DNA of 64,000 nt, taken from contig JAGWLG010000008.1 of NCBI GenBank assembly GCA_028864975.1, positions 55,884 to 119,883 on the forward strand, read 5' to 3'. This stretch comes from Thermoplasmata archaeon. Lineage in GTDB: Archaea; Thermoplasmatota; Thermoplasmata; Lutacidiplasmatales; UBA184. How positions within the stretch are numbered: the stretch's first letter is position 1; the number at the start of each line of letters is the position of its first letter. Positions 1 through 64,000 of this stretch are shown one piece after another. The notes beneath the pieces are model-generated. The model ran no database searches and was not told the DNA's origin. It saw only the letters and a program-made list of their open reading frames with translations. The position numbers and the translations under genes are program-made.

Positions 1-153
1 TCCTGGCGGCTGAAGGTCGGCGAGTACCGGGCCATCTACTACCTGCTCCCAGGCCTCGTCGTGGACTTCTACTGCTTCGGAGAAAGGAACGCACTCTACT
101 CCCGCTTCAAGCTCATGTTCGACCTCGGGTTCCTCCCCGAGAAGCCGGACTAG
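1..153 (+). CDS. RelE/ParE-family toxin-like protein, 3' part (5' end outside window)
   Basis: Frame 1 reads SWRLKVGEYRAIYYLLPGLVVDFYCFGERNALYSRF...*; matches RelE-type WRLRVGDYRIIY signature; not in ORF track. Confidence 0.6.
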   Translation, partial: SWRLKVGEYRAIYYLLPGLVVDFYCFGERNALYSRFKLMFDLGFLPEKPD

Positions 154-154
154 C

Positions 155-526
155 TCAGTACGGTCTCAGGAGCTTCGCTGAAGGGTCCCTCCGGTGAAGG
201 ATTCGCGCACGGTCATCGAAGTGCGTCAGGTCCCGGTCCCGGATTTCGCGGAGCTTGAAGTCGTAGAGTGCCTCGTCGCGCGTGGCCGGTCTCAGCGACC
301 GGTCGAACTCGTCCTCGTTCATCTGGGAGGCATCGAGCCAAAAGTCCGGCTCCGGGCAACCGAGCGAGCGCACCTCTGCCTCCTCGATTCTCCGGCCGAC
401 GTCCGGTCTCGCGGTCAGAATCCCCACCTGGTGGCCGGCACTCTTGAGCGCCGCCATGATGACGCAGAGGTCCCGCCCGTGGGGACCGAACAGCGTATCG
501 TCCAGGTCGAAGGAGAAGCCGCTCAC
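155..526 (-). CDS. HAD-superfamily phosphatase (minimal, capless)
   Basis: Motif I FDLDDTL, motif II LTAR, motif IV FDD. Confidence 0.8.
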   Translation of the reverse strand: MSGFSFDLDDTLFGPHGRDLCVIMAALKSAGHQVGILTARPDVGRRIEEAEVRSLGCPEPDFWLDASQMNEDEFDRSLRPATRDEALYDFKLREIRDRDLTHFDDRARILHRRDPSAKLLRPY

Positions 527-550
527 GAACTAGGCCACGGGTGCCGCGCC

Positions 551-775
551 TTATTGAGCCTTCTCTGTACCCTCAATCTTCCAGTTCTTCGAGACGACCC
601 CAGTTATTCGGAGCCACCCTATGGTACACGCCAAGCTCACTAACTCCTGGACCCATAGGAACGCCGCCAGGAATCTCAGGGTCAGGTTGAGGGTCACCAT
701 CACGAGCATCGTGAACCCGATGGTGTAGACGATGACCTCCATCACCACCTGGCGCTTGCCTAGCGAGAGCGCCAT
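551..775 (-). CDS. Small membrane protein
   Basis: 74 aa, two hydrophobic segments, co-oriented between GGR and HAD. Confidence 0.5.
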   Translation of the reverse strand: MALSLGKRQVVMEVIVYTIGFTMLVMVTLNLTLRFLAAFLWVQELVSLACTIGWLRITGVVSKNWKIEGTEKAQ

Positions 776-778
776 TGG

Positions 779-2023
779 TCAACCCGCGAGCGCCTTCCAC
801 AGCCGCCCGGCCTTCCACAGCGTCTTGATGGGACGGAACCCTTTCTTCCTCACGAATCGGAGCAGGTCCCGCCGCACCGTGTAAGGGTTGAAGTCACCCT
901 CCGGCATCGGGAACTCGCAGAACCAGGTGAAGAACTGGCGGAGGTCAGCGTCACTCATGGAGAGGATGGTCTGTTTCATCGCCCACCGTGCGCGCATCTC
1001 CTTCGTGTACGGACGCACCAACGGCTCGTAGTGGTCCGGCTGACCCTCGGCGACGGTCCTCGCGGCCATGACCCCCGATGCGAGGGCCTGGTGGATGCCG
1101 CCCCCAGTCACGGGGTCGCATAGCCTGGCCGAGTCACCGATGGAGAGGACCCGACCGGCGTGCAGCGTCCTCGGTGGCCTGTAGGTCGGGATGATTCCGC
1201 CCTCGCGCTGCAAGGGCTTCGTGTCGTAGCGCGGGTTCTGCTTCAGCCACCGGTTGAAGAACGTCTTCGTGGCAATGGTTCTACCCGCCTCGTCCTTCAC
1301 ACTGATGGGGGTACCGATTCCGACACGCCTTGCGGGTCTACCCTTGAACGAGCACGGGAAGTCCCAGATGTATCCGGCCGGAGAAGTAGACCCAATCCAC
1401 ATCCCGACCTGGTCCTTGGGTAGCACCGCATTCTCCTCGATGGTCTGCTCGAAACCCATATGGAAACTCTCGGGTTCCAGTTCCCTCACGATGCCGAACT
1501 TGCGGGAGACCCGTGCGTCGTAGCCACCGGCGTCGAGCACCCAGCGTGTCGTCACCAATCGTACAGTCTTCCCGTCCCTCACCGCGACGTGGTATCCTCC
1601 GTCCGACCTCACGACGTCCTCGACTGCGCACGAATGCCACGCCGTCAACCCCTTTGACAGCGAGAACCGTTCGAGCCTCCCCAGGAAGTCGTCCTCGTTC
1701 AGGACGAAGCCAAGGTCCCCGGCCAACAGGTTCGTGTTGTTGAGGATACGCTTCTTCTCCGGTGCGTCTCCCGGGATGAAGATGCGGAAGGAGTTGATGG
1801 GACTGGAGACGGAAGATTCGACTGGCGGGAAGCCGAGCTTCTTCAACCAGAAGGAGGCGATGCCCGAGGTCGAGGCCGCGGGATAACCAGCGCGACCCCG
1901 GCGGTCCACCAGGAGTGCCTTGTGCGCGAGCCCGAGCTTCGCTAGTTCGTGCGCCGCCGCCTGCCCGCCGTAACCCCCGCCGACGATGACCACCTGATAC
2001 GCCGTTTCCCTCCCCGGTACCAT
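779..2023 (-). CDS. Geranylgeranyl reductase family FAD oxidoreductase (digeranylgeranylglycerophospholipid reductase-like)
   Basis: VVIVGGGYGG Rossmann motif, SPAGYIWDFP (PxxYxWxFP GGR signature), GDSARLCDPVTGGGIHQALASG; likely start ATG 2023. Confidence 0.88.
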   Translation of the reverse strand: MVPGRETAYQVVIVGGGYGGQAAAHELAKLGLAHKALLVDRRGRAGYPAASTSGIASFWLKKLGFPPVESSVSSPINSFRIFIPGDAPEKKRILNNTNLLAGDLGFVLNEDDFLGRLERFSLSKGLTAWHSCAVEDVVRSDGGYHVAVRDGKTVRLVTTRWVLDAGGYDARVSRKFGIVRELEPESFHMGFEQTIEENAVLPKDQVGMWIGSTSPAGYIWDFPCSFKGRPARRVGIGTPISVKDEAGRTIATKTFFNRWLKQNPRYDTKPLQREGGIIPTYRPPRTLHAGRVLSIGDSARLCDPVTGGGIHQALASGVMAARTVAEGQPDHYEPLVRPYTKEMRARWAMKQTILSMSDADLRQFFTWFCEFPMPEGDFNPYTVRRDLLRFVRKKGFRPIKTLWKAGRLWKALAG

Positions 2024-2090: not shown

Positions 2091-2549
2091 ATGCCCGAGG
2101 CCGAGGTCATCGACGTCCGCGCTCCCCCTGCCCCTGAGACCAAGAAGTCCGGCGGAGGTGCCGGTGGCAAGCGCAAGTACGAGAAGGGGCAACCGGCCAA
2201 CGAGCACCCGAACTGGAACATCCAGGCCCGCGCGATTGCGCGCACCGACTTCGACCTCGTCAAGGCCGCGGCGGAACAGCGCGGCATCGGCCAAGCGCAA
2301 CTCATCGCTGAGGTGATGCACCTGTGGTGCTCCGACCCGAATCTCCTCGTCTACAACGCTCTCTACGCAGAGTGGGAGCGGAACTACCAGGGGAACTACT
2401 CGTTCCCGTGCCGGTCGTGCAAGAACTCCTTGAATCTCACCCCGAAGTTCTGGAAGGAATACGTCTGGCCACGCATCGCCCGGCTCACGGACCAGCGGCT
2501 CTTTCCGCGGTTCCGGTGCCGGAACTGCGCCTCGCGGACCAAAAAGTAG
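2091..2549 (+). CDS. Putative transcription regulator (RHH-like N-part, C-terminal CxxC...CxxC Zn finger)
   Basis: RTDFDLVKAAAEQRGIGQAQLIAEVM helix pair; CRSC and CRNC motifs. Confidence 0.5.
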   Translation: MPEAEVIDVRAPPAPETKKSGGGAGGKRKYEKGQPANEHPNWNIQARAIARTDFDLVKAAAEQRGIGQAQLIAEVMHLWCSDPNLLVYNALYAEWERNYQGNYSFPCRSCKNSLNLTPKFWKEYVWPRIARLTDQRLFPRFRCRNCASRTKK

Positions 2550-2579
2550 GTCTTAAAAAGGTGTCTGAGCTTCCCTGGG

Positions 2580-3707
2580 TTGGGGAAGAAGGTGGCCGGT
2601 GCAAGTGCCTACGCTTCCGGGGTCGCATCTGTGACCGGCGAAGGGGACAAGGACCCGGTTGCCGAAGAGCAGCGGGCATCAGGCCCCCTGACCGAGGACC
2701 CCGAAATCTTCGCCCGACGTATCGACCTCCGCAGCAAAATCACCGGCATCCTGCTGCGCGTCAAGCGCCTCTCTAAGGTCTACGACGAGAAGACCGAACT
2801 CCTCCAGAAGCTCAACGACTACAAGAACCGGCTCTCGACCGGGCGCAACGTCGGCCCGGAAATCCTCGACCTCATCGTGAGCGAACTCAACGGCGAAGTG
2901 ACGCCGGAACTCCTTGCTCTCGAAGCCGACATGGAGTTGCACGGGTACCCACCTGACCTCCCCGCCGGTGTCCAGGGGAACAACGGTCACGCCCTCGCCA
3001 AGAAGGACGAGGTAGCGATTCCGCGCATCATCGGCTCGACCAACTTCGGGAAGATGACGGACCGGGAGTGGAAGGAGTTCATCCAGAGCACTCCTGCCGA
3101 AACCATCCGCGCCGCCGCCTCCGGGTCGAAGGGCTCCGACGGGGAGAACGGTAACTCCAAGCTGTTGGAACGCCTCATGGACACCCAGCAGAAGTTCTTT
3201 GAGGAGCGGTTCGCGCAGCTTCGCTCTCAAGCGAACTGGAACCCGTTCGAGATGTTCGACACGCTCCGCCAGCACAACATCCCCGTCGTGATTGGAGGAG
3301 TTGGGGCTGGTGCGACGGACCCGGCCACGGCCAAGGTACAGGGCACCCACGAACTCGTGAAGACCGTCGTCCAGGGGCACAACCAGACCAAGAACCAACT
3401 CCTCACCATCCTCGGCCCGTTGGCCCGGGACGAAATCAAGCAGCGCCGACGACAGCACTACGGCTCCGCTCCGGTCGTGCACCAGTACTCCGCTGACGAA
3501 GCGGCCTCGCTCGCCGAGGAGCAATCCACGGCCGACGCCCGGGAGCGCGAGGAAGAGGAGAACGAGGAGCACGACGAACAGGTGACCTTCCATGGTCACA
3601 ATGGTCACGACGGCGACGGCGGGCCGGACACCGGGCCCGACAACGGCTCCGACCGCTCTCAGCCTCGCAACGGGAACGGCAATGGAGGTGCGCGCCGTGG
3701 CCGGTGA
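2580..3707 (+). CDS. Hypothetical protein, helical with acidic low-complexity C-terminus
   Basis: 375-aa ORF with strong coding bias; TTAAAA box at 2553-2558; exact start uncertain. Confidence 0.7.
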   Translation: MGKKVAGASAYASGVASVTGEGDKDPVAEEQRASGPLTEDPEIFARRIDLRSKITGILLRVKRLSKVYDEKTELLQKLNDYKNRLSTGRNVGPEILDLIVSELNGEVTPELLALEADMELHGYPPDLPAGVQGNNGHALAKKDEVAIPRIIGSTNFGKMTDREWKEFIQSTPAETIRAAASGSKGSDGENGNSKLLERLMDTQQKFFEERFAQLRSQANWNPFEMFDTLRQHNIPVVIGGVGAGATDPATAKVQGTHELVKTVVQGHNQTKNQLLTILGPLARDEIKQRRRQHYGSAPVVHQYSADEAASLAEEQSTADAREREEEENEEHDEQVTFHGHNGHDGDGGPDTGPDNGSDRSQPRNGNGNGGARRGR

Positions 3708-4530
3708 ACCCTCCAGCATCCCCTCCGACGCCCAGGTCCTCGTCAAGGAGAAGGACGGTGTCGAGGACAAGACCTACGTGTACGACGACGGGAAGAACAT
3801 CGTCGTGGAACGCAACCTGGACTTCGAGCCCGGGTCCGAACCTGCTCCCCTCGGGAAGAGGGAGGGCGTGACACTTCAGGCCGGGCGCCGGAACATCAAG
3901 GGGCACGACTACCACACCGTGCGCAAGGTGTTCTACGAGAAGGCGAAGGGGTTCGACGTGGCCAAGGTGATGGCGGAACTGCCGAAGCTCCTGGAGTACG
4001 AGGGGAAGTGCCCCCACTGCTCGAAGGCCGCGGAGGCGGCGAAGCCGCTGCGGGTTCCCGGAAGTGCGCAGCCCGCGAAAACTGGAGGCTCCTCCAGAAC
4101 GCCGCGCCAGCCGAAGGTCCCCAAGCCCGCGGACTGGTCGAAGCTCCCTGCCCCCGCGTTCAAGCCGCGCCCGCCGCCGCGACCGAAGTCCGCTCCTCCT
4201 GCGCCGGGCTCATCCCGGGCCCCCGCTCCATCCGGTCCCACTGCTCCCCCGGAGACCGGGGCTCCCGGCACCGGCCCGTTCCACATCGCAGAGGAAGGGG
4301 CGACCGTTCCCCGCTCCGGCTTCCTCGGGTTCGGTGTCGTGGGCTCGCTCGGAGTCCTACCGTCGTCCGGCCCGCGGTCCGGCCGCGTCGCCGAGCCCGG
4401 CCGCATGCGCTCCAGCATCCCCCACGTCCCCCGCCCCGGACTCCTCAAGGACATCGGCGGCGACGCGCGGGAGGCCATCGACAAGCTCAAGCAGAACAGA
4501 CCGCGCCTCTCTGAGGTGTTCAGCTTCTGA
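3697..4530 (+). CDS. Hypothetical protein with CPHC and long Pro-rich region
   Basis: GTG 3697 after GGAGGTG RBS, overlaps upstream stop. Confidence 0.7.
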   Translation: MAGEPSSIPSDAQVLVKEKDGVEDKTYVYDDGKNIVVERNLDFEPGSEPAPLGKREGVTLQAGRRNIKGHDYHTVRKVFYEKAKGFDVAKVMAELPKLLEYEGKCPHCSKAAEAAKPLRVPGSAQPAKTGGSSRTPRQPKVPKPADWSKLPAPAFKPRPPPRPKSAPPAPGSSRAPAPSGPTAPPETGAPGTGPFHIAEEGATVPRSGFLGFGVVGSLGVLPSSGPRSGRVAEPGRMRSSIPHVPRPGLLKDIGGDAREAIDKLKQNRPRLSEVFSF

Positions 4531-6221: not shown

Positions 6222-6863
6222 ATGAGCAACAACAACTTGGGAGACATGGCCGAGGACTCCGTCCTCGCCTACGCCGGACTCAACCCGACCGCGAAGGCCT
6301 ACCAGTCCTACGTGGACATCTCCATCGCCGACGATGGGGTGTCCGTGCAGGACCAGCCGGAAGCCTCCGCTCCGGGCGGGTCCACCGGGTACGCCGTGGT
6401 GAACGCCGCCGACAACACCTCGGGCGCCGCACCCCCGAAGACCTACCACACGAACTTCGGGTGGATGACCCTGCGCTCGGGCGAGGTGGTCCGCGTCTTC
6501 TACGACTTCCAGATGAAGACCGTGGACGCGACGCTCCGGCTCACCCACGCCTCGGCGACCGCCACGCCCGGCGGAGCCGCGAACTTCAAGCAGGGGGACT
6601 CCGTCCTCGTGCAGAAGGGCAAGTGGGGAGGCGCCGCCTACAAGGCCGGCACCACCCCGACGGGAACCCTCAAGGCCCACCTGGGCGCCACCACGAGCGA
6701 GGGCGCGACCGGTGTCGTGCCCAAGCTGGACCAGGGGACCCCCGTCAACGTCGCGGCCGGCGAGGACATCGCTGTGGTCTTCGGGCTCGCCACCGCTCCC
6801 GCGCAGCACGCGGTGGGCGTCTACGGGCTCCACTACATCGGTCTCTCGACCGCGGTCGTCTGA
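6222..6863 (+). CDS. Candidate major virion protein, beta-strand rich
   Basis: Strong RBS GAAAGGAGG, very biased codons, followed by terminator; Gly/Thr/Ala-rich beta pattern (PVNVAAGEDIAVVF); function inferred. Confidence 0.55.
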   Translation: MSNNNLGDMAEDSVLAYAGLNPTAKAYQSYVDISIADDGVSVQDQPEASAPGGSTGYAVVNAADNTSGAAPPKTYHTNFGWMTLRSGEVVRVFYDFQMKTVDATLRLTHASATATPGGAANFKQGDSVLVQKGKWGGAAYKAGTTPTGTLKAHLGATTSEGATGVVPKLDQGTPVNVAAGEDIAVVFGLATAPAQHAVGVYGLHYIGLSTAVV

Positions 6864-6969: not shown

Positions 6970-9120
6970 ATGACGGACAATGACCTCGTGAGCTACCCGC
7001 GAACCGGGCGCGATGGTCTCCTCGCGGCAGTTCAGACGCCGCAGTCCCTAGCGGACTATCTCTTCAACCTCGAAGGCTTCATCGCCACTTTCACCGGGGC
7101 CGACCCGACGCCCCATAGCGTCCTCGCCCCCATCACGTTCCTGGAGGGCGTGACCTTTGCTGGAGGGGTGACCTTCAGCGGCGGCGGTGGATTGGTCGGG
7201 TGCGTCCCCATCGACTCCATCTGCCCACCCTCGGGAACTCTGACCGTCAACGGGAACCTGACCGTGACCGGTGCGGAGACCATCGACCTCACGGAGACCG
7301 TTCTCGGGCTCTTGACCGTCAATGTCGCGGCCGGCAACATTGCGGAGTTCCAGGTCGGGGGGGTGACCAAGGCGCACATCGACGCCAACGGGACGTACCA
7401 AGCCGGTGGCTCCAGCGGCTACGGGCTCTCCGGCATCAGCATCGACGCCGGTGTTGTGTCGTACAACGTCACGCTTCAGGATGGGTCCACGGTCCGCTTC
7501 ACCAGTGAACTTGTCGCGGGGTACACCGCCGGAGCCGCCGAGGTGTGGACCCTGGCGACGCAGAACGTCGGGTTCCCGCTTGCGACGCTGTACGGCGGCG
7601 CCGCCACGGCCGGAACCATCCAGCTTTGGGGCCGGGCCGGGACGGACTACGCCGCTATCAACATCCTCGGCGGACTCGGGGGAGCCTTCCAGGCTATCGC
7701 TGACCCCAGCGGGGACTCCGTGTACTACGCCTACTCCTACCTGCGCGGAGGACAGGCAGCGTCACTACCCATCCAGGGGTACAACGGAGCGGCGTTCGTT
7801 ACCGTGGCGACACTGACCCAAGCGGCGACACCGACGTTCGACCTCGCGGCCGGGAGGTTGACCGGGGGATTCAATCTCAATGCGCAGACCCTCACCGGGA
7901 ACGCTATCCTGACAGGGTTCCCCTACGCGCTCTCCGGCACCACCCTCGCCACCGGAGGGACCATCCTCCAGGCGTTCAGCGATGGGGGAGGCGTGCACAT
8001 CATGGATATGCTACTCGCCGGGACGGTCCTCTCGTTCGACAGCAACTCTACCATCCCCATCAGCAAGAACCCCACCTATCAGTTTGGGAAGAACGTAAAT
8101 GTCGTCTTTCCAATCGGTGAGAAGAACCGATTCGCTGTCTTTGGTAGCACCGGTGGCCTCTCGCTCCAAGCAGCGGACTCAACCGACCCGGTCACCCCCA
8201 ATGGTCTCTTCTCGCTCAACAACACCCTCGACGACGGCACCACCGGCGCCGCCACCTTCGCCGGTCTCCTCACCATGTCCGCCGGGGCCAATCTCACCGG
8301 CACCCTCGCCTGGGTCAACGCCCAGACGGTCACCCTGAGCCTCACCGCGCAGACCATCGGGGCTGCGACGCTCACCGTCCCCAACTTCGCGGGGGTCAGT
8401 GACACCTTCGCCTTCCTCACCCTGGCCCAGACCTTTGCCGGCGTCAAGACCTTCAGCGCGACCGCCGCGTTCACCAACGCAAGTCCGTTCTCCATGACCA
8501 ATGCACAGGTCGTGACCGTGACCCTCACCGCCCAGACCGTCGGGGCCTCGACCCTCACCGTCCCGAACTTCGCGGGGGCCTCTGACACCTTCGCGTTCCT
8601 CACCTTGACTCAGACCCTCGCTAACAAGACCCTCGGCGCCGGCACCCTCCTTGGTGTGAGCCTTCTCCCGACCGCCGACAACACCTACCGACTCGGGTCC
8701 GCGGCCTTGCGCATCACGGGTGTCTCGGTCAGCAGCGACTTCTCCGTCTACGCCGCCGCCTCCGACGCCTTCGCCGCCGCCGTGCTCGGTCCCTCCGGAC
8801 TCCTCCTCGGACCGGGAGGCGCCGGTGCTGGTGACACCCACTGGCAGCGGCAGAGCGTTGGGGTCATCGGCGGAGCGCACATCCTTACCTCGGGCGGTGG
8901 CACCGCGCCCACGGCCGTTGTGGTTCCGGCCTCCGGCACCGCCTACACACCCTCCGCGACGCAAAACACCGTCGTCATGTCGTCAGGAGGCGTTGTCAGC
9001 GGCATCGCCATCAACGGCGTCGCCACCGGGCTTACCAGTGGAACCTTCTACCTCAAGGCCAGCGACACCATCACCTGGACGTACACCGGTGCTCCGTCAG
9101 CCGTCCAGATGAACGCTTGA
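6970..9120 (+). CDS. Fibre/spike-like repeat protein A (716 aa)
   Basis: G/A/T-rich; repeats TLTVPNFAGxSDTFAFLTLxQT and QTLANKTL; N-terminus shared with 9615-11510; distinct C-terminal domain. Confidence 0.75.
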   Translation: MTDNDLVSYPRTGRDGLLAAVQTPQSLADYLFNLEGFIATFTGADPTPHSVLAPITFLEGVTFAGGVTFSGGGGLVGCVPIDSICPPSGTLTVNGNLTVTGAETIDLTETVLGLLTVNVAAGNIAEFQVGGVTKAHIDANGTYQAGGSSGYGLSGISIDAGVVSYNVTLQDGSTVRFTSELVAGYTAGAAEVWTLATQNVGFPLATLYGGAATAGTIQLWGRAGTDYAAINILGGLGGAFQAIADPSGDSVYYAYSYLRGGQAASLPIQGYNGAAFVTVATLTQAATPTFDLAAGRLTGGFNLNAQTLTGNAILTGFPYALSGTTLATGGTILQAFSDGGGVHIMDMLLAGTVLSFDSNSTIPISKNPTYQFGKNVNVVFPIGEKNRFAVFGSTGGLSLQAADSTDPVTPNGLFSLNNTLDDGTTGAATFAGLLTMSAGANLTGTLAWVNAQTVTLSLTAQTIGAATLTVPNFAGVSDTFAFLTLAQTFAGVKTFSATAAFTNASPFSMTNAQVVTVTLTAQTVGASTLTVPNFAGASDTFAFLTLTQTLANKTLGAGTLLGVSLLPTADNTYRLGSAALRITGVSVSSDFSVYAAASDAFAAAVLGPSGLLLGPGGAGAGDTHWQRQSVGVIGGAHILTSGGGTAPTAVVVPASGTAYTPSATQNTVVMSSGGVVSGIAINGVATGLTSGTFYLKASDTITWTYTGAPSAVQMNA

Positions 9121-31133: not shown

Positions 31134-32080
31134 CGTCTCCCTCCTGGGCCGCGAGCGCCACGTCGAGCGTGTAGCACTGTTCGTGGACCCTTCCCTCGCC
31201 TCTCCCGGTCACCGGCTTCCCGCACACGATACACGGCTCTGGCTGCTTCTTCGCGCTCATCTCTTCTTCCTCGGGTCGAAACTGTCGATGATGAACTGCG
31301 CGTTCGCCTCGGCCACCGCCTGGGCGTCCTCTCCGTCCCTGACCTCGTCGATGAGCACCCGGATGAACTCCCCGGGGTCTTCCTTCACGCTCAGCACGAG
31401 CCACCCCGGGGTGCACTCCTCCGCATCCCTGTTCCTCTCCAGCGGACCTTCAGTTCTCGTCGTCACCATCGTCTCGCTCTCCTCTTCGGCGGCTCCCGGT
31501 AGTTGCGAATCTGGTCCAGGCTCACCGGCCTTCCCCCGAGCGTCGCCGCGTGCGCGTCGCGCCGCTGCTGGAACTTCCTCGCCGCTCTGCCCCACTTGTC
31601 CTTGGGGCTCGGCGAACTGTCGTCCTTCTTCTCCGGCGGCGGCTGGACCTTCGGGCACCGACACTGGTCCGGCGGGTAGTGACACTTGACGCACTCGTCC
31701 TCCATCAGCCGGAGGTTCTTTACCAGGCGACGACCGCAGCGGCAGAGGTTCTCCGACATGGCTCAGTAGTGGACCTTGTAGCCCCGTCGGCTCTCCCAAT
31801 CGCCCCACCCGTTCTCTCCTGCGCTCACCCAGGCCTGCTCGCTAGACCCCTCGAACTCCCTTGCGAGAATCTTCGCCGCGCCCTCCACCGGCACCTTGTG
31901 CCAGCCCGTCAGGTGGCCGAGCAGGCTCCACGGGCCGTACCGCGCCCAACTCCCCGCGCACCAGGCGCAGGTGATGGTGGACGCGAGGTGCACCGCCAAC
32001 TGGTTCAGCTTCTCGATGGTCTCCGCGTCCAGTTGACTCTTCGGCTCCGTCCCCGGGGCCGCGGTGTTCTCCGCGCTCAT
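31126..32080 (-). other. Small coupled ORFs incl. Zn-finger proteins (31126-31260, 31257-31469, 31463-31759, about 31763-32080)
   Basis: CIVCGKPV, CRCG..CVKCH..C.C, CAWC..H..H motifs. Confidence 0.55.
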
Positions 32081-33945
32081 TCTACGCTCCAGAGCGTGTC
32101 CGACGCCTTGACCCGATTGTAGAGCGCGGCTCGCCGGTTCTCCAGGTCTTCCTGTGGGATGGACTCCTTCACCGCCGGAAGCTCCTCGACGAGGCCGTTC
32201 GTCCTCAGCACCGACAGGTTGTTCCCGAAGGTCCCCCCGCTGGCCTCGTACCCGCTCTTCTCCCCAAGCTCGATTCTGGTCAGCGGGTTCGGGTGCTCCT
32301 GCTCCAAGACGTCGAGCATCTTCCGCGGGCCCGCGGGCAGGTTGCGGTGCCACATCGCCATGACCTCTTCGTGGGTCTGGGGCGCGACCGGCTTCTCCCC
32401 GATGAACGCCATCCCAGCCTCGGAGGCTCGAACCGAGCCGTCCGCGGACTCGTCGAGGTACCCCGCCTTGCGCAGGATGGACAGTTGGTTCCCGAACGTA
32501 CCACCGCCCGCGGCGTATCCGGACAGCGTCCCTAGCTGGGACCTCGTGAGCGTGAGAGGGTGCCGACGCGCCAACTCGGTGAGCATCTTCAGCGCACCCT
32601 TGCCCAGGGTCACCTCCCCCTCCGGTTCGGCCCCAGCCAGCTTCGAGTGGTCCACTGGGAAGGAGCGCATCGGCGTCTCCGCCACCCTCCGGGCATGCTC
32701 AACGTCGGCTGGGTGGGCCTTCACGAAGGGTACGGCCTGCGGGACCGGTTGCTGGACAGGTGGCGACGCAACTCTACCCGGGTCGTCGGATGGTGCGAAC
32801 CTCGGATACCCGTCCCACCATTTCTGAACACCGCGCAGGTGCTTCTCCATCGCGCTCACGATGCCAGCGAGCCGGTGGGCCTCCTGCTGGTAGTGACTCG
32901 ACTCCATGCGCAGCCTCGATACGAGCACCGGGTCCACGGTCGGCCCCGGGTCCGGCCGTGCCTTCGCCGCCTCCAGTTGCTTCTTCAGCGTCGCTAGCTC
33001 CGCGCGCAGCTTGGGCACGTTCGCCGCCTCAGCTTTCTTCTCCGCGAGGACCTTGAACGTCTCCCCGAGCTTCGTCACGAGCGGCGCCACGTCCGTTGTG
33101 GTGACCCTCACCTTGAGCATCCCTGTCTTCCGGAGATGCGTCCGGTCCGGGTGGAAGGTCTCGAACTCCCGCACGAAGACCTTCTCGAAGCGCTGGAACT
33201 CCCGTGGGGACCAGAAGAAGCACTCGCGCACTTTGAGCGCGGCAAGCTCCCGGTCGAACTGCTCAAGTTGCTTCTCCGTGCCCCACGCCTCCACCCACTC
33301 GCGCAGGGCTTTCCGGTCCGGGGTTCCGGTGAGACCGAAGATGACCATAGTTCCGCACTGACAAAGTGCGTCCTTGTTCACCGTCGCCGCGCGCTGGGAG
33401 ATTAACGTCACTCCAAGGCCCTTGTTCCTGCCCATCCTTACGATGCGCTCGACCGCGTCATACGTGGTCGCGTTGTCCGGGCGCACTGTCTGAGGCAGGA
33501 CCTCCTTGGCCTCGTCAATGACGAGCAGCCGGCTCGTGTCGTTGATGCCGTAGATGGTGTCGCAGAAGTCCTTCAGGAACCGGCGGTACGCGGCCTTCGG
33601 CTCCTCGGAGAAGTCGATGACGCAGGATACGTTCGCCTCGACGATGGCCCTGGCGACCTCTGCGCCTGTGTTCGCGTTGAGCGGTAGGTCCTGGTGAGCC
33701 CCACCGATGACCAGCACCGGGAGTCCTGGACTTTTCCCATCACGGGAACTCTTGATGCCCCAGCCGACACCGGCCGGGTCGAAGACCACGAAGGGGAGAC
33801 CCACCCGAACTAGCTCCTCTTCGACTACTTTCAGTAGGCCCGATTTCCCGAGCCCACTTTGCCCGATTATTGCGGTCCGTGCCTCGATATACTCCTCCGC
33901 GGGCACAGAGAATCTTGCCCCGATATGCAGCACCTTCTTCGGCAC
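32077..33945 (-). CDS. HerA/FtsK-superfamily ATPase (DUF87-type) with two C-terminal winged-helix repeats
   Basis: Walker A GQSGLGKS, Walker B LVIDEA, ISQR; duplicated LTR..LG..SGY.A.GGTFGN.LS.LR. Confidence 0.85.
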   Translation of the reverse strand: MPKKVLHIGARFSVPAEEYIEARTAIIGQSGLGKSGLLKVVEEELVRVGLPFVVFDPAGVGWGIKSSRDGKSPGLPVLVIGGAHQDLPLNANTGAEVARAIVEANVSCVIDFSEEPKAAYRRFLKDFCDTIYGINDTSRLLVIDEAKEVLPQTVRPDNATTYDAVERIVRMGRNKGLGVTLISQRAATVNKDALCQCGTMVIFGLTGTPDRKALREWVEAWGTEKQLEQFDRELAALKVRECFFWSPREFQRFEKVFVREFETFHPDRTHLRKTGMLKVRVTTTDVAPLVTKLGETFKVLAEKKAEAANVPKLRAELATLKKQLEAAKARPDPGPTVDPVLVSRLRMESSHYQQEAHRLAGIVSAMEKHLRGVQKWWDGYPRFAPSDDPGRVASPPVQQPVPQAVPFVKAHPADVEHARRVAETPMRSFPVDHSKLAGAEPEGEVTLGKGALKMLTELARRHPLTLTRSQLGTLSGYAAGGGTFGNQLSILRKAGYLDESADGSVRASEAGMAFIGEKPVAPQTHEEVMAMWHRNLPAGPRKMLDVLEQEHPNPLTRIELGEKSGYEASGGTFGNNLSVLRTNGLVEELPAVKESIPQEDLENRRAALYNRVKASDTLWSVE

Positions 33946-34749: not shown

Positions 34750-34762
34750 TTCTACTACCCCT
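34750..34762 (+). promoter_or_regulatory. TTCTACTACCCCT motif in AT-rich intergenic spacer
   Basis: Identical to 2073-2085. Confidence 0.6.
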
Positions 34763-34780: not shown

Positions 34781-35128
34781 TCACGGGGTGCGTCCGTACC
34801 TCACCTGGTGGATGACGAGCCCCTCCGGTTCCCTCCGGACGAGCAGTTTCATCCCTATCAATCCAAGCGGTACCTGCGCCCGGTAGATTCGTACCGCCAC
34901 CTTGTCCCAGTTCTCGAAGTTGTAGACCGTCGCCCCCAGCAGTTTCGGCGCGGTGCCCAATGTCCCCCGGTCTTGGAGGTAAATCGTCGGCGGGGACTCA
35001 CTGCTCGTCATCAACATGGAGAGCCCCACCACCTCCAGCAGCCGCTCCTCCCCGGGCTTCAGGTAGCCCGTCGTCAGTTGCTCGACCGTCCTCTCTTCCT
35101 CTTCATCCGTGTCCACTCTTGTCGTCAT
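34781..35128 (-). CDS. Hypothetical protein
   Basis: ATG 35128, coding bias. Confidence 0.55.
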   Translation of the reverse strand: MTTRVDTDEEEERTVEQLTTGYLKPGEERLLEVVGLSMLMTSSESPPTIYLQDRGTLGTAPKLLGATVYNFENWDKVAVRIYRAQVPLGLIGMKLLVRREPEGLVIHQVRYGRTP

Positions 35129-35180
35129 GCCGCACCTTCCCCTTCTCGTTGCTCTGACTTGCCGCTGAACTCGTCGCCGC

Positions 35181-36110
35181 TCATCCATACCCGGACTGGT
35201 AGCTGTCGGTCCCTGGTGGCGGTGGGAACGGCGGTGGCCTCTCCGTCCTCTCCACCTCCGCTTTGTGACGCTCAAGCTGTAGCTCGTTCTGCAAGAGCTT
35301 CTCCAGCCGGACCGTCGGACTACCCTCCTTCACAATCTGCATCGCCTGAGCCAGCGTCAGGTCCTTCGGCCCCAGGTGGACCTCGTGACGGACCTTCTTC
35401 CCCTTCTGGTAGAGCTGCTCCAGCGCGTTGCTGAACCTCCGCAGTTCCACCGCGCGAAGACCCTTCAGCCTCCACCCCTCGTAGTCCGTGTGAATCCCAA
35501 TCTGGGTGACCATGAACTTCGAGCCGGCGTCCTCGATGCCGAACGCTCCCTCTAGCCACCCCTGCAATCCCCCGAACTCCTGGAACCGGATTGGCCTCTC
35601 CGTCGATGGCACGTAGACCGTGATGCTGTCCTTCCCCGGGGCGTGGCGTATCTCGACCCACCACTTCCTCCAGAGACGCTTCACGACACCCCAGCGCACG
35701 CCGGGCTTGTACGTCATGTCCGGGAATCGTTCGGCGACCAAATCATCAAGTTCCGTAGCACCGCCACGCGGCAACGGGGTATGGACTACCCCTTTCCGCC
35801 ACTTCGCATACAGCGTGAGCCCGTGGATGCCCTCCTCTCCGAACGGGTCGCCTTTGATGTCAGGGGTCCCCGGTTGACCGATGTAGGGACCCCGGGGGTA
35901 GTCCTGGCGTATGACCCCTTCCTGCGTCAGGTCCTTGAGGTGACGCTCGACCGTCCTCAGAGGGAGGCCGGCCCTCTTGGCGATGAGCTTCGCCGGGGCT
36001 CCGGCCCTGTCGAACTCCCCCAACGCCTTCAGGATGCGGCGGATGACTGCCGCCACGTCTTTGCGCCGCGGAGCCGCCAGTTCACCGGCGCGAGGGTTTC
36101 CCCTACCCAT
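35181..36110 (-). CDS. wHTH protein fused to possible Rep_trans-like initiator domain
   Basis: N-terminal AKLIAKRAGLPLRTVERHLKDL..G HTH; VTQIGIHTD, LYQK, VRHEVHL resemble Rep_trans motif order (inference). Confidence 0.45.
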   Translation of the reverse strand: MGRGNPRAGELAAPRRKDVAAVIRRILKALGEFDRAGAPAKLIAKRAGLPLRTVERHLKDLTQEGVIRQDYPRGPYIGQPGTPDIKGDPFGEEGIHGLTLYAKWRKGVVHTPLPRGGATELDDLVAERFPDMTYKPGVRWGVVKRLWRKWWVEIRHAPGKDSITVYVPSTERPIRFQEFGGLQGWLEGAFGIEDAGSKFMVTQIGIHTDYEGWRLKGLRAVELRRFSNALEQLYQKGKKVRHEVHLGPKDLTLAQAMQIVKEGSPTVRLEKLLQNELQLERHKAEVERTERPPPFPPPPGTDSYQSGYG

Positions 36111-61853: not shown

Positions 61854-63356
61854 TCAGACCCTGTCCAGCAGGCCGAAGAGCCGGTCCAGCGTCCGCTCCA
61901 CGACGTACGTCCCCGCGATGACCACGTCGCAGGCCAGGTCCCGGGCCGAGTTCACCGCCTTCTGCGCGTCCAGCGCTACGGCCTGCGCCTCCCTGGTCAG
62001 CGCCAGCACGTCCTTCAGCGTCGCCCGCACCACCGGCATCCCCGCCCGTCGCTCGCTCGCGGCCGGTCGCTCCGTCGTCGTCGCTCTCTCCCCTTCGTTC
62101 GTCCTCTGTCTCTTCTTCGTCGGCATGTTCGCTCTCACTCCTCGTTCTTCTGTCGTTGTCGTGTCAGCCAGTCGTTGAAGGCCGGGCCGACCATCTCGAC
62201 ATAGTTCGCCGGGTCGAGAAGGTGCCCGGTCGGTGTCCCCAAACCGCGGTCCACCTTCGCGCCCAGGAAACCCTGGTTGAACCCGACCGCGAACTTCGCC
62301 GCCATCTCGCCGTACCTCTTTCCTGCTCTGTGCTCTATCTCCTCGGTCATCGTCGTCCCTCTAGTCCGCTTGCTCCGGGTGCGTCCGCTCCAGGCATTCC
62401 TTGTTCCACCAGGAACCGACGTTGTCGGGCACCCCCGGCGCCGTGCTCAGGAACCCGGCGCTGACGTTCAACGGGTGGTTCTTCGTCTCCGCCTTCCCGC
62501 ATCCTCGGCACCGGTACGCCTTCCACCTCTCCCTGAACTCCTCCTCCGGCGTCGGAGGCTTCTTCACCTGCGCCATCTCCGGCGGCCAAATCTTCCGGTG
62601 CTTCTTCGCGTTGAAGTACGGCATCCCGAAGAGGCCCCCCTCCGGTCCAATCGAGTAGCAGTAGGCCTCCGGCTTCCCCGGCTCCACGAATGCCCCGCGG
62701 CATTCAAGACAGTAGATGTAGACGTGGTCCAGGCAGCGCATCGCACGGTGGGTCTCGGCGTCGCAGGAGCACTGGAGACAGCGGCCCACCTGCCTTCACC
62801 TCCCCACGAGTGGGGCGATTGCCGAGCGGGACAGTTCGCGGCACTCCAGGAGCACGAATCTGTTCTCCCGGGTCACCTGTAACGTCGGCTTCCCCGGCAG
62901 ACCCACGGACCAGTCATCCAGTTGCTCTGCGGTGGACCTGTCGTCCAACACTCGTCCGTCGAGCCGCCCGGACGCTTCGTGCTCTCCGAGCATGCTCAGC
63001 ACCAGATGGAGGTCCTCGTGCTTCAGGATGGTGGCGAGCGCAGTGACCTCCACGCCCTGTTCCCGGTAGAGTTCCCAGTGGGAGTGTTCACGCAGGATGA
63101 CGAGTCCCTTGACCGGACGGAAGACCTCCGCCATGATGTCGATACCGGTCGTCGGGTGAACACGTCTGCGGCTTATCGACACCGCTCGGTTCCATTCCCC
63201 CGGACTCGTCGTCTCGTACTTCGCTATGGCGGACTCCACCTCATCGACCTGCTGGTCATAGCTGCCCATGTAGGAGAAGTCGTTCCAGATGTCACCGCTG
63301 GGCAGGTTAAACCATCTCGAAAATGCTTCCTGCAACCTGCGTACCCTGGTATCCAT
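61854..63356 (-). other. Hypothetical ORFs (61854-62126, 62135-62350, 62361-62789 Zn finger, 62796-63356)
   Basis: Coding bias, CxxC motifs. Confidence 0.55.
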
Positions 63357-64000
63357 TCGGCCCGTCCTTCCGGAGATTCTCCAGCGTGAAGACCGCATCC
63401 GAGAGGTCCTTCAAGACCTGCGCCACCCCGGGAATCACCGCGATGCTCACCAGCTTCACTTTCTTCCCGACCCGCCACTCCTTGTAATCGCGCGCCCAAA
63501 GCTCCTCGACCTGGCAAAAACCATCTGTGACCATCAGGACGTCGGCGCGCTCGCCCTGCTTCTCTTCGTCGATGATGCGCCGCGCGTAGTCGAGTGGGCG
63601 CTGGAACGAGGTGCCTCCTCCCTCAAAGTACTCCGCGCACTCCATGACGGCCTCCTGGATGGGACCGTTGTAGAGCTTTTCCGTCGTGCACTTGTCCTTC
63701 GTGTCCCGCTGCTTGTACGCGGGTGGAGGAGCTTTCGTCGGCTGCGTGAAGTGCCACGCCACGATGGGGTCCGAGTCGTCCCCGAAGAACGCGATGTGCG
63801 CGGAACGGTCCTGACTTCTTGCGATGTCCACGATGGCGAGCGCCAAGGCCTTCGCCCAAAGCTCCGGCTCTCCGCCCATCGAACCGGACGTGTCCACCAT
63901 TACCACAATCGGACCCTTCCCGACCTTCTCCTCCCCCTCCAGCTTGTACTGTAGGAGTTGGCGCTCGGCGAACCGGCGCAGGAAGTCCACCTCCAAGTCC
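63307..64000 (-). CDS. von Willebrand factor A domain protein (ViaA/YehP-like), 5' end outside window
   Basis: MIDAS VMVDTSGSMGG, GGTSF, VLMVTDG. Confidence 0.88.
   Translation of the reverse strand, partial: DLEVDFLRRFAERQLLQYKLEGEEKVGKGPIVVMVDTSGSMGGEPELWAKALALAIVDIARSQDRSAHIAFFGDDSDPIVAWHFTQPTKAPPPAYKQRDTKDKCTTEKLYNGPIQEAVMECAEYFEGGGTSFQRPLDYARRIIDEEKQGERADVLMVTDGFCQVEELWARDYKEWRVGKKVKLVSIAVIPGVAQVLKDLSDAVFTLENLRKDGPNGYQGTQVAGSIFEMV

Follow-up and report, generated by a model that had tools for sequence, protein, structure and literature searches.

A geranylgeranyl reductase-family gene lacking the active-site cysteine as a backbone component of archaeal mobile elements

A three-gene cluster with a cysteine-less flavoprotein

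Contig C2 (JAGWLG010000008.1 of assembly GCA_028864975.1; 119,883 bp) belongs to a 3.6-Mb, 124-contig metagenome-assembled genome (MAG) deposited as a Thermoplasmata archaeon, and its right-hand 64 kb carries a gene for a flavoprotein resembling geranylgeranyl reductase (GGR), which is the subject of this work. That stretch of 64,000 nucleotides is the window analysed here, and coordinates refer to it unless they are marked as positions of C2 or of another record. Translation of its open reading frames (ORFs) places three co-oriented, close-packed genes on the minus strand within 155–2023. The GGR-like gene (779–2023, minus strand), recognized by translation, profile searches and a structural model, starts with ATG and encodes a 414-aa flavoprotein of the type that binds flavin adenine dinucleotide (FAD), P0004; an alternative GTG start upstream, at 2044, would add seven residues (421 aa, P0001). 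After a spacer of 3–36 nt follows a gene for a small hydrophobic protein of 74 aa (551–775, minus strand; translation, hydropathy scan and NCBI gene call), which the NCBI record carries as a 63-aa form from the ATG at 742 and for which the hydropathy scan predicts two transmembrane helices (2-TM protein; residues ~10–32 and 35–55). A further 24 nt separate it from the gene for a 123-aa HAD-like protein, P0002 (155–526, minus strand), identified by its motifs and fold likeness. GC content at third codon positions is 0.80–0.83 in all three, matching the real genes of C2, and we confirmed the three genes as real.

Divergent from the cluster, a plus-strand gene begins at 2091, and the ATG codons of this gene and of the GGR-like gene (2023) enclose a spacer of 67 nt (2024–2090). 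Within it lie a TATA-like hexamer (CTTATA/TATAAG, 2061–2066), 25–30 nt ahead of the ATG at 2091, and the word GGTAGTAGAA (2073–2082), which has an exact second copy at 34750–34759, upstream of the operon of a HerA-type ATPase, and gives eight hits at one mismatch or fewer against 0.9 expected. This spacer presumably holds the promoter for the three genes and, to judge by the spacing, transcription probably runs on from the reductase gene into the two genes downstream.

The motifs by which the first-pass annotation had recognized a GGR are all present in P0004. The FAD-binding GxGxxG motif reads GGGYGG (residues 15–20) and is conserved throughout the clade of element-borne relatives described below; the PxxYxWxFP strand reads PAGYIWDFP (215–223), with Y218, W220, F222 and P223 invariant in the clade; and the GD..P..GGG motif, GDSARLCDPVTGGG at 296–309, is likewise kept across it. 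A phmmer search of PDB sequences returned the GGR of Thermoplasma acidophilum (Ta0516, 3OZ2) as the best match at E 1.8e-33, with the GGR of Sulfolobus acidocaldarius (SaGGR) at about 1e-20. An AlphaFold2 model built from a 27-sequence alignment reached a pLDDT (predicted local distance difference test) of 93.5, and Foldseek placed 3oz2 first for this model (E 1.4e-32, TM-score 0.83/0.87) and the SaGGR entries next (0.78), whereas the nearest non-GGR flavoproteins, among them EtfX/FixC, halogenases and monooxygenases, did not exceed 0.68. P0004 thus shares with Ta0516 and SaGGR (3ATQ/4OPC) the three-domain fold, the FAD motifs, the PxxYxWxFP strand and the GGG motif, but it is only 24–28% identical to them, belongs to a mobile element, scores below the family cut-offs and differs at the active site.

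The active-site cysteine of GGRs, Cys47 of SaGGR, located behind the flavin, aligns to Ser51 of P0004, within the sequence STSG. The family alignment has serine at this position in 17 other clade members as well, so that P-P-S-S-T-S-G is found in 18/18 sequences, while TaGGR, SaGGR and the three paralogues in the host genome read P-V-R/Q-C-G/A at the same site. The earlier description of the gene as an intact GGR is therefore not borne out: the FAD, YxWxFP and GGG motifs are in place, but the catalytic cysteine is replaced by Ser51 and the profile scores are low (123.9 bits, for instance, against a cut-off of 780 for the Thermoplasmatales digeranylgeranylglycerophospholipid reductase model). 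Because the cysteine is missing and the scores are sub-threshold, P0004 is, on its sequence, a GGR-fold, GGR-family paralogue rather than a demonstrated GGR.

To place P0004 among its relatives, we inferred a rapid maximum-likelihood tree from 77 sequences, in which branch support is given by SH-aLRT (Shimodaira–Hasegawa-like approximate likelihood ratio test) values only. The element-borne sequences form a monophyletic clade (SH-aLRT 97), nested in a larger cysteine-less branch with the signature xTTGG (SH-aLRT 95). Members of this xTTGG branch, such as P0029 and P0034, likewise have threonine or serine in place of cysteine, but they are only ~26–31% identical to P0004, and at least one of them lies on a 565-kb, presumably chromosomal, contig. 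The comparison with host copies that the first-pass annotation had called for separates the two groups clearly: the host's canonical GGR (contig C10) and two other host paralogues stand among cysteine-bearing sequences, across a branch with support 99. The C10 copy scores 493 bits with the Thermoplasmatales model and 236 bits with TIGR02032, and P0004 is only 28% identical to it, which argues against recent capture from this host. Two of the cysteine-less relatives exceed the TIGR02032 cut-off; the loss of the cysteine therefore appears to be old and to have been maintained, and it argues for a working enzyme with an altered mechanism over a decayed gene.

The clade comprises about 18 representatives at 35–56% identity to P0004, beyond which identity falls to ~30%. 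An exhaustive HMMER search of 1.84 billion representative proteins gave only 14 at E ≤ 1e-30, with about nine scoring at least 214 bits and the next ones ~150 bits and lower. At E ≤ 1e-40, the clade was found in 0 of 300 other Thermoplasmata genomes, and among 185,579 species representatives it occurs on two further contigs, from MAGs labelled 'Acidimicrobiales' and 'Nitrososphaerales'. The clade belongs to archaeal mobile elements, outside host chromosomes.

A backbone gene of an integrative-element family

We located the neighbourhoods of clade members by looking up exact proteins and by a scan of metagenomes, and mapped them by tblastn. About 11 elements (L008, L010/L024, L016/L025, L019, L020, L021, L022, L026, L027, L028 and L029) have a uniform module, in which one strand carries a tyrosine integrase, p165, ParA, p107, in some cases p139, and a protein of 580–620 aa (p580), and the divergent arm runs from a protein of ~94 aa (p94) through the GGR-like gene to a PrimPol-D5 primase-helicase, replaced in L019 by an Orc1/Cdc6 initiator. 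The uniformity of these neighbourhoods shows that the GGR-like clade belongs to the core backbone of an archaeal integrative-element family.

In the smaller related elements, p94 always adjoins the GGR-like gene on its 5′ side and often overlaps it; it lies directly upstream at L010:9720–10004, L016:9481–9738, L020:6412–6684, L026:9383–9598, L029:9684–9983 and L008:9311–9514. The protein belongs to no known family. A CxxCR motif is conserved in it and its C-terminal helix is hydrophobic, and it could assist the cysteine-less enzyme as a redox partner or as an anchor.

Genes of the UbiA prenyltransferase family are a second recurrent companion. They occur within 10 kb of the GGR-like gene in L010 (two genes), L016, L021 (two genes) and an 85-kb contig that is possibly identical with the L021 record. 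On C2 itself, a tandem pair of very diverged UbiA genes lies left of the window at C2 37446–39370 (L015:10001–11925), 18 kb from the GGR-like gene, and is preceded by a gene for a Vsr-like endonuclease, a pairing of UbiA and Vsr also seen in L010. The second gene of the pair (UbiA2) is 37% identical to a UbiA of L016/L025, the C2 UbiA region matches one of the L010 UbiA proteins at 37.5% identity by tblastn, and the single PDB match of UbiA2 is a weak one to digeranylgeranylglyceryl phosphate (DGGGP) synthase (E 8.5e-5).

The cluster on C2 departs from this pattern. A hidden Markov model search of all C2 ORFs found no homologues of p94, p580, p165, p107 or p139, and tblastn with P0002 and P0003 found no homologue of the 2-TM and HAD genes in 26 related loci. 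With the downstream genes missing from the related loci and the backbone missing from C2, the three-gene set is peculiar to C2. The first-pass annotation had read it as a virus-borne operon for lipid remodelling, in which the virus would tailor host lipids for its envelope or an internal membrane, the GGR would saturate lipid chains and the HAD protein would act on lipid headgroups; the membrane protein would assist in such a scheme. The co-orientation and tight spacing of the three genes suit such an operon, as do the two UbiA genes and an Erv1/Alr-family sulfhydryl oxidase gene on C2. The comparison of loci speaks against it: the 2-TM and HAD genes stand beside the GGR-like gene in C2 only, in 0 of ~11 related elements and at none of the related GGR loci, and the three-gene lipid operon as such is not upheld.

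Nor do the downstream proteins themselves point to lipids. The 2-TM protein has no match in Pfam, NCBIfam or PHROGs. In P0002, HAD motifs I, II and IV are present (DLDDT at 7–11, ILTAR at 36–40 with Thr38, and DD at 104–105), while the lysine or arginine of motif III could not be assigned with confidence. It matches no HAD profile significantly and no Pfam HAD family, the weak matches being to HAD-IIB TIGR01484 (E 0.017, 15 bits against a cut-off of 41.8) and to the polynucleotide kinase profile phrog_415 (E 0.0024), and it has no sequence relative in a 5.8-billion-protein index or among PDB sequences. AlphaFold2 run on the single sequence reached a pLDDT of only 53, a poor model for which Foldseek found nothing significant in PDB. 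The ESM Atlas model (predicted TM-score 0.89) resembles small, mostly viral HAD_PNKP, Acid_phosphat_B and NT5C proteins with TM-scores of 0.67–0.78.

The phosphatase domain of T4 Pnkp and the small phage HADs (HAD_PNKP PF25109, Acid_phosphat_B, NT5C), which are mostly viral, share a capless core of ~115–157 aa, and P0002 has in common with the small phage HADs the N-terminal DxDxT and the C-terminal DD. The 'FDDR' of P0002 may also resemble a motif of T4 Pnkp. Unlike the T4 Pnkp-type proteins, P0002 has no kinase domain and no significant sequence match to them, and the RNA-ligase-like gene of C2 lies 43 kb away from it. The best reading makes P0002 a capless HAD phosphatase of the PNKP type that phages commonly carry, with nucleotides or the ends of nucleic acids as likelier substrates than lipids. 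A role in lipid headgroup chemistry finds no footing here: P0002 has no lipid-phosphatase signature and no sequence relatives, its fold neighbours are viral PNKP/NT5C-type HADs, and no conserved linkage to lipid-synthesis genes was found. The 2-TM and HAD genes thus appear to be cargo of C2 alone, outside any conserved lipid pathway.

The C2 element and its host

That the cluster sits in a mobile element and not in ordinary host chromosome, as first proposed, is corroborated by the DNA left of the window, which belongs to the same element and continues as a dense array of short, mostly unannotatable genes, unlike ordinary chromosome. By tetranucleotide composition C2 stands out most strongly of the large contigs of the MAG, and its GC content is 65.4% against 67.4% for the genome. 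In blastn comparisons with the rest of the MAG, it gave one weak nucleotide match (116 nt at 72% identity) and no spacer-like or insertion sequence (IS) match. The last 77 nt of C2 overlap its first 77 nt in frame at 88% identity, joining the halves of a split gene with a vWA domain: the C-terminal half, with the DTSGS metal-ion-dependent adhesion site, lies at 63307–63999 on the minus strand and the N-terminal half at C2 1–1133, both matching phrog_24053. This in-frame overlap suggests that C2 probably is a circle or has redundant termini, and that strains vary at the break. A look-up with a presumed 451-aa start, made to probe circularity, found no record. Separately, the coordinates of record JAGWGM010000009.1 are offset from those of C2 by 8,156 bp, with a length difference of 1 bp; the offset could reflect a rotated circular copy or a bookkeeping artefact and was left out of the evidence. 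The MAG, at 3.6 Mb, is also much larger than the genomes of its family (1.5–2.5 Mb), perhaps because it contains additional contigs or several mobile elements.

We scanned 115 C2 proteins and 18 neighbours with Pfam and PHROGs and added precomputed annotation. The gene content resembles that of a mobile element and includes ParA, MoxR with vWA, a HerA/FtsK-like ATPase, a tyrosine recombinase, an IS, restriction-modification genes and a ParE-like toxin. The last of these, a 105-aa protein recognized by a weak precomputed Pfam ParE_toxin match (L012:11871–12188), ends in the window (1–153, plus strand), where its gene converges on the HAD gene, and an antitoxin-like partner lies upstream of it. 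Other genes encode the two UbiA proteins, DnaJ, NADAR, PKD-domain proteins, methyltransferases and the Erv1/Alr-family protein (C2 ~35042–35584, L015:13787–14329; left of the window beside ParA, Pfam E 3e-9), as well as DUF5131, DUF1643, DUF3846, DUF6744, RNA ligase-like and MazG-like proteins.

Neither Pfam nor PHROGs identified a capsid, portal or terminase gene, although the sensitivity of such scans for novel archaeal virion proteins is low. The sole 'terminase' match on C2, to phrog_2666, falls on the HerA/FtsK-like P-loop ATPase (622 aa; 32077–33945, minus strand; Pfam DUF87/HerA_C), and we rejected it, as this profile also matches 14 of 14 control genomes. By tblastn, the ATPase finds 84 plasmid records against one phage record. 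Searches of IMG/VR with three C2 queries (the GGR clade alignment, the HerA ATPase and the DUF6744 protein) gave no relatives, and no match was found in 50,697 phage records with 20 kb of the element by megablast or with the GGR-like protein by tblastn.

Two blocks of large ORFan genes flank the GGR cluster, one in the window at 2091–4530 on the plus strand (152, 375 and 277 aa) and one just left of it at C2 48956–54973 (673, 440, 240, 161 and 478 aa); their proteins have no Pfam or PHROG match. The genes are co-oriented within each block, and their sizes would suit a packaging and head module. A weak Pfam GpA_ATPase match on 2055–2549 (E 6e-4), below the cut-off and covering the profile end only, was judged spurious. 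Farther into the window, the genes at 6970–9120 (716 aa) and 9615–11510 (631 aa) contain common repeat modules of 71–96% nucleotide identity by self-BLAST; their products, without Pfam or PHROG match, are consistent with mosaic fibre-like or adhesin-like proteins. A 213-aa protein at 6222–6863, noted as 'beta-rich', gave a poor ESM Atlas model (pLDDT 0.32) with scores below 0.9.

Evidence on the virus question is divided. DUF5131, MoxR, the RNA ligase, the PNKP-like HAD and a phrog_6247 match (76 phage records) are phage-typical, and the ORFan blocks beside the GGR-like gene could conceal unrecognized virion proteins. Against these stand the failure to find capsid, portal or terminase genes, the mostly plasmid relatives of the supposed terminase, and the empty IMG/VR searches; ParA, integrase and toxin-antitoxin genes suit a plasmid or an integrative element equally. 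Calling the cluster virus-borne is accordingly not sustained. We consider it probable that C2 is plasmid-like or another kind of element and hold the possibility that it is a virus only tentatively, and we think it very unlikely that it is a virus with a three-gene operon for remodelling host lipids.

Several features bear on the host. The C2 IS transposase has hundreds of homologues, and all those with a named organism are from Thermoplasmata (59–68% identity, mostly on contigs of 0.1–0.5 Mb). The window also encodes a tRNA-Ala(GGC), found by ARAGORN at 15933–16006 on the plus strand, whose seven-base acceptor stem GGGCACG equals that of the chromosomal tRNA-Ala(CGC) of the MAG; among the chromosomal tRNA-Ala genes of the MAG, ARAGORN detected those with CGC and TGC anticodons only, and no credible one with GGC. 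Upstream AT profiles and Shine–Dalgarno counts, compared for archaeal and bacterial signals, were suggestive only.

We also considered whether C2 could be a mis-binned bacterial plasmid, for example an actinobacterial one, unrelated to archaeal lipids. The best plasmid matches of the HerA-like ATPase are actinobacterial, one related element comes from the 'Acidimicrobiales' MAG, Shine–Dalgarno motifs are commoner in C2 than in most contigs of the MAG, and its composition is the most deviant of all. However, plasmid counts are biased, with archaeal plasmids poorly represented in PLSDB, and the labelled IS relatives, the tRNA-Ala stem shared with the host, the Orc1/Cdc6 gene in a related element and the TATA-like box ahead of the ATG at 2091 all point to archaea, as does the origin of the nearest characterized GGR in Thermoplasma. 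On the strength of the IS relatives, the tRNA-Ala stem, Orc1/Cdc6 and the TATA-like hexamer, we are highly confident that the host is a Thermoplasmata archaeon and regard a bacterial plasmid as extremely improbable.

Prenyl reduction and alternative functions

We favour, at roughly even odds, the explanation that the GGR-like gene encodes an element-borne variant of a prenyl reductase that works with UbiA enzymes of the element, the two downstream genes of C2 being unrelated cargo. In such an enzyme, FAD bound through the GxGxxG and GD motifs would in its reduced form donate hydride to the C=C bonds in an isoprenoid chain, which the PxxYxWxFP strand would hold in line. The substrate would probably be a prenylated product of the element's UbiA: an ether lipid, a quinone or a polyprenyl carrier. 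As the cysteine is replaced by Ser-Thr-Ser across the clade, the proton or electron relay would have to differ from that of characterized GGRs, and might be formed by Ser51-Thr52-Ser53 at the flavin or, in the smaller elements, involve the CxxC of p94.

A number of observations count against a prenyl reductase. P0004 reaches 116.9 bits with NCBIfam TIGR02032, below the curated cut-off of 158.8, and 25.0 bits with Pfam GGR_cat (PF22578), under the cut-off of 27. All GGRs proven to reduce prenyl substrates retain the active-site cysteine (PMC6309074), and a passage in PMC10821996, citing Sasaki 2011, reports it to be essential in SaGGR, such that its absence may mean another chemistry or none. 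We identified no electron donor in C2. UbiA genes were not found near the GGR-like gene in L008, L019, L020, L026 or L029 within the available DNA, and every NCBIfam score by which the C2 UbiA proteins could be assigned to a subfamily is far under its cut-off. Finally, the fixed place of the gene beside replication and partition genes could indicate a non-lipid role in element maintenance.

In an alternative explanation the GGR fold is kept and prenyl reduction is lost, the protein performing other flavin chemistry, such as oxidation, desaturation or action on a different hydrophobic substrate, or binding lipid or FAD without catalysis for element maintenance. The invariant Ser-Thr-Ser-Gly where active GGRs have cysteine, the strictly conserved backbone position beside PrimPol or Orc1, the CxxCR protein p94 upstream and the scores below family cut-offs would all fit such a change. 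Yet the clade has kept the FAD and GGG motifs together with the YxWxFP strand that aligns the substrate, the old cysteine-less xTTGG branch has members above the TIGR02032 cut-off, and UbiA genes co-occur with the clade. Moreover, AF_0648, an archaeal prenyl reductase without canonical GGR motifs, is reported to be active (PMC10821996). We therefore judge a loss of prenyl reduction to be somewhat unlikely, and return to the prenyl reductase variant as our working explanation.

The prenyl reductase explanation can be extended to a wider proposal, which we rate as unlikely on the present evidence: that elements, or unrecognized viruses, of wall-less Thermoplasmata carry an isoprenoid-lipid module of UbiA and a cysteine-less GGR with which they rewrite the host membrane, and that the small CxxC protein of the smaller elements may supply a thiol or electrons in trans. 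GGR-family genes have been noted on other archaeal elements, since DGGR genes are listed on the jumbo circular extrachromosomal elements of Methanoperedens (PMC13444090). Those elements are large, circular and archaeal, as C2 probably is, and likewise carry a GGR-family gene, but they belong to another host lineage and element type, and DGGR is there a listed item of metabolic cargo, whereas here it is a backbone gene of a small family. The literature searched yielded no paper on archaeal viruses with GGR or UbiA genes, and no description of a cysteine-less GGR clade that serves an element family as a core gene, next to a CxxC protein and partnered by UbiA.

C2 represents an uncharacterized type of Thermoplasmata extrachromosomal element. 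To our knowledge, the biochemistry of archaeal GGR paralogues is largely uncharted, and a clade maintained under selection without the cysteine offers a natural test of the role of that residue. If the wider proposal is true, this would be the first core gene of a mobile element devoted to archaeal membrane lipid chemistry, and the membrane, the only barrier of these cells, would be rewritten to form envelopes, keep out rivals or aid host fitness. The clade thus raises the possibility that mobile elements of wall-less archaea tune the isoprenoids of their hosts' membranes.

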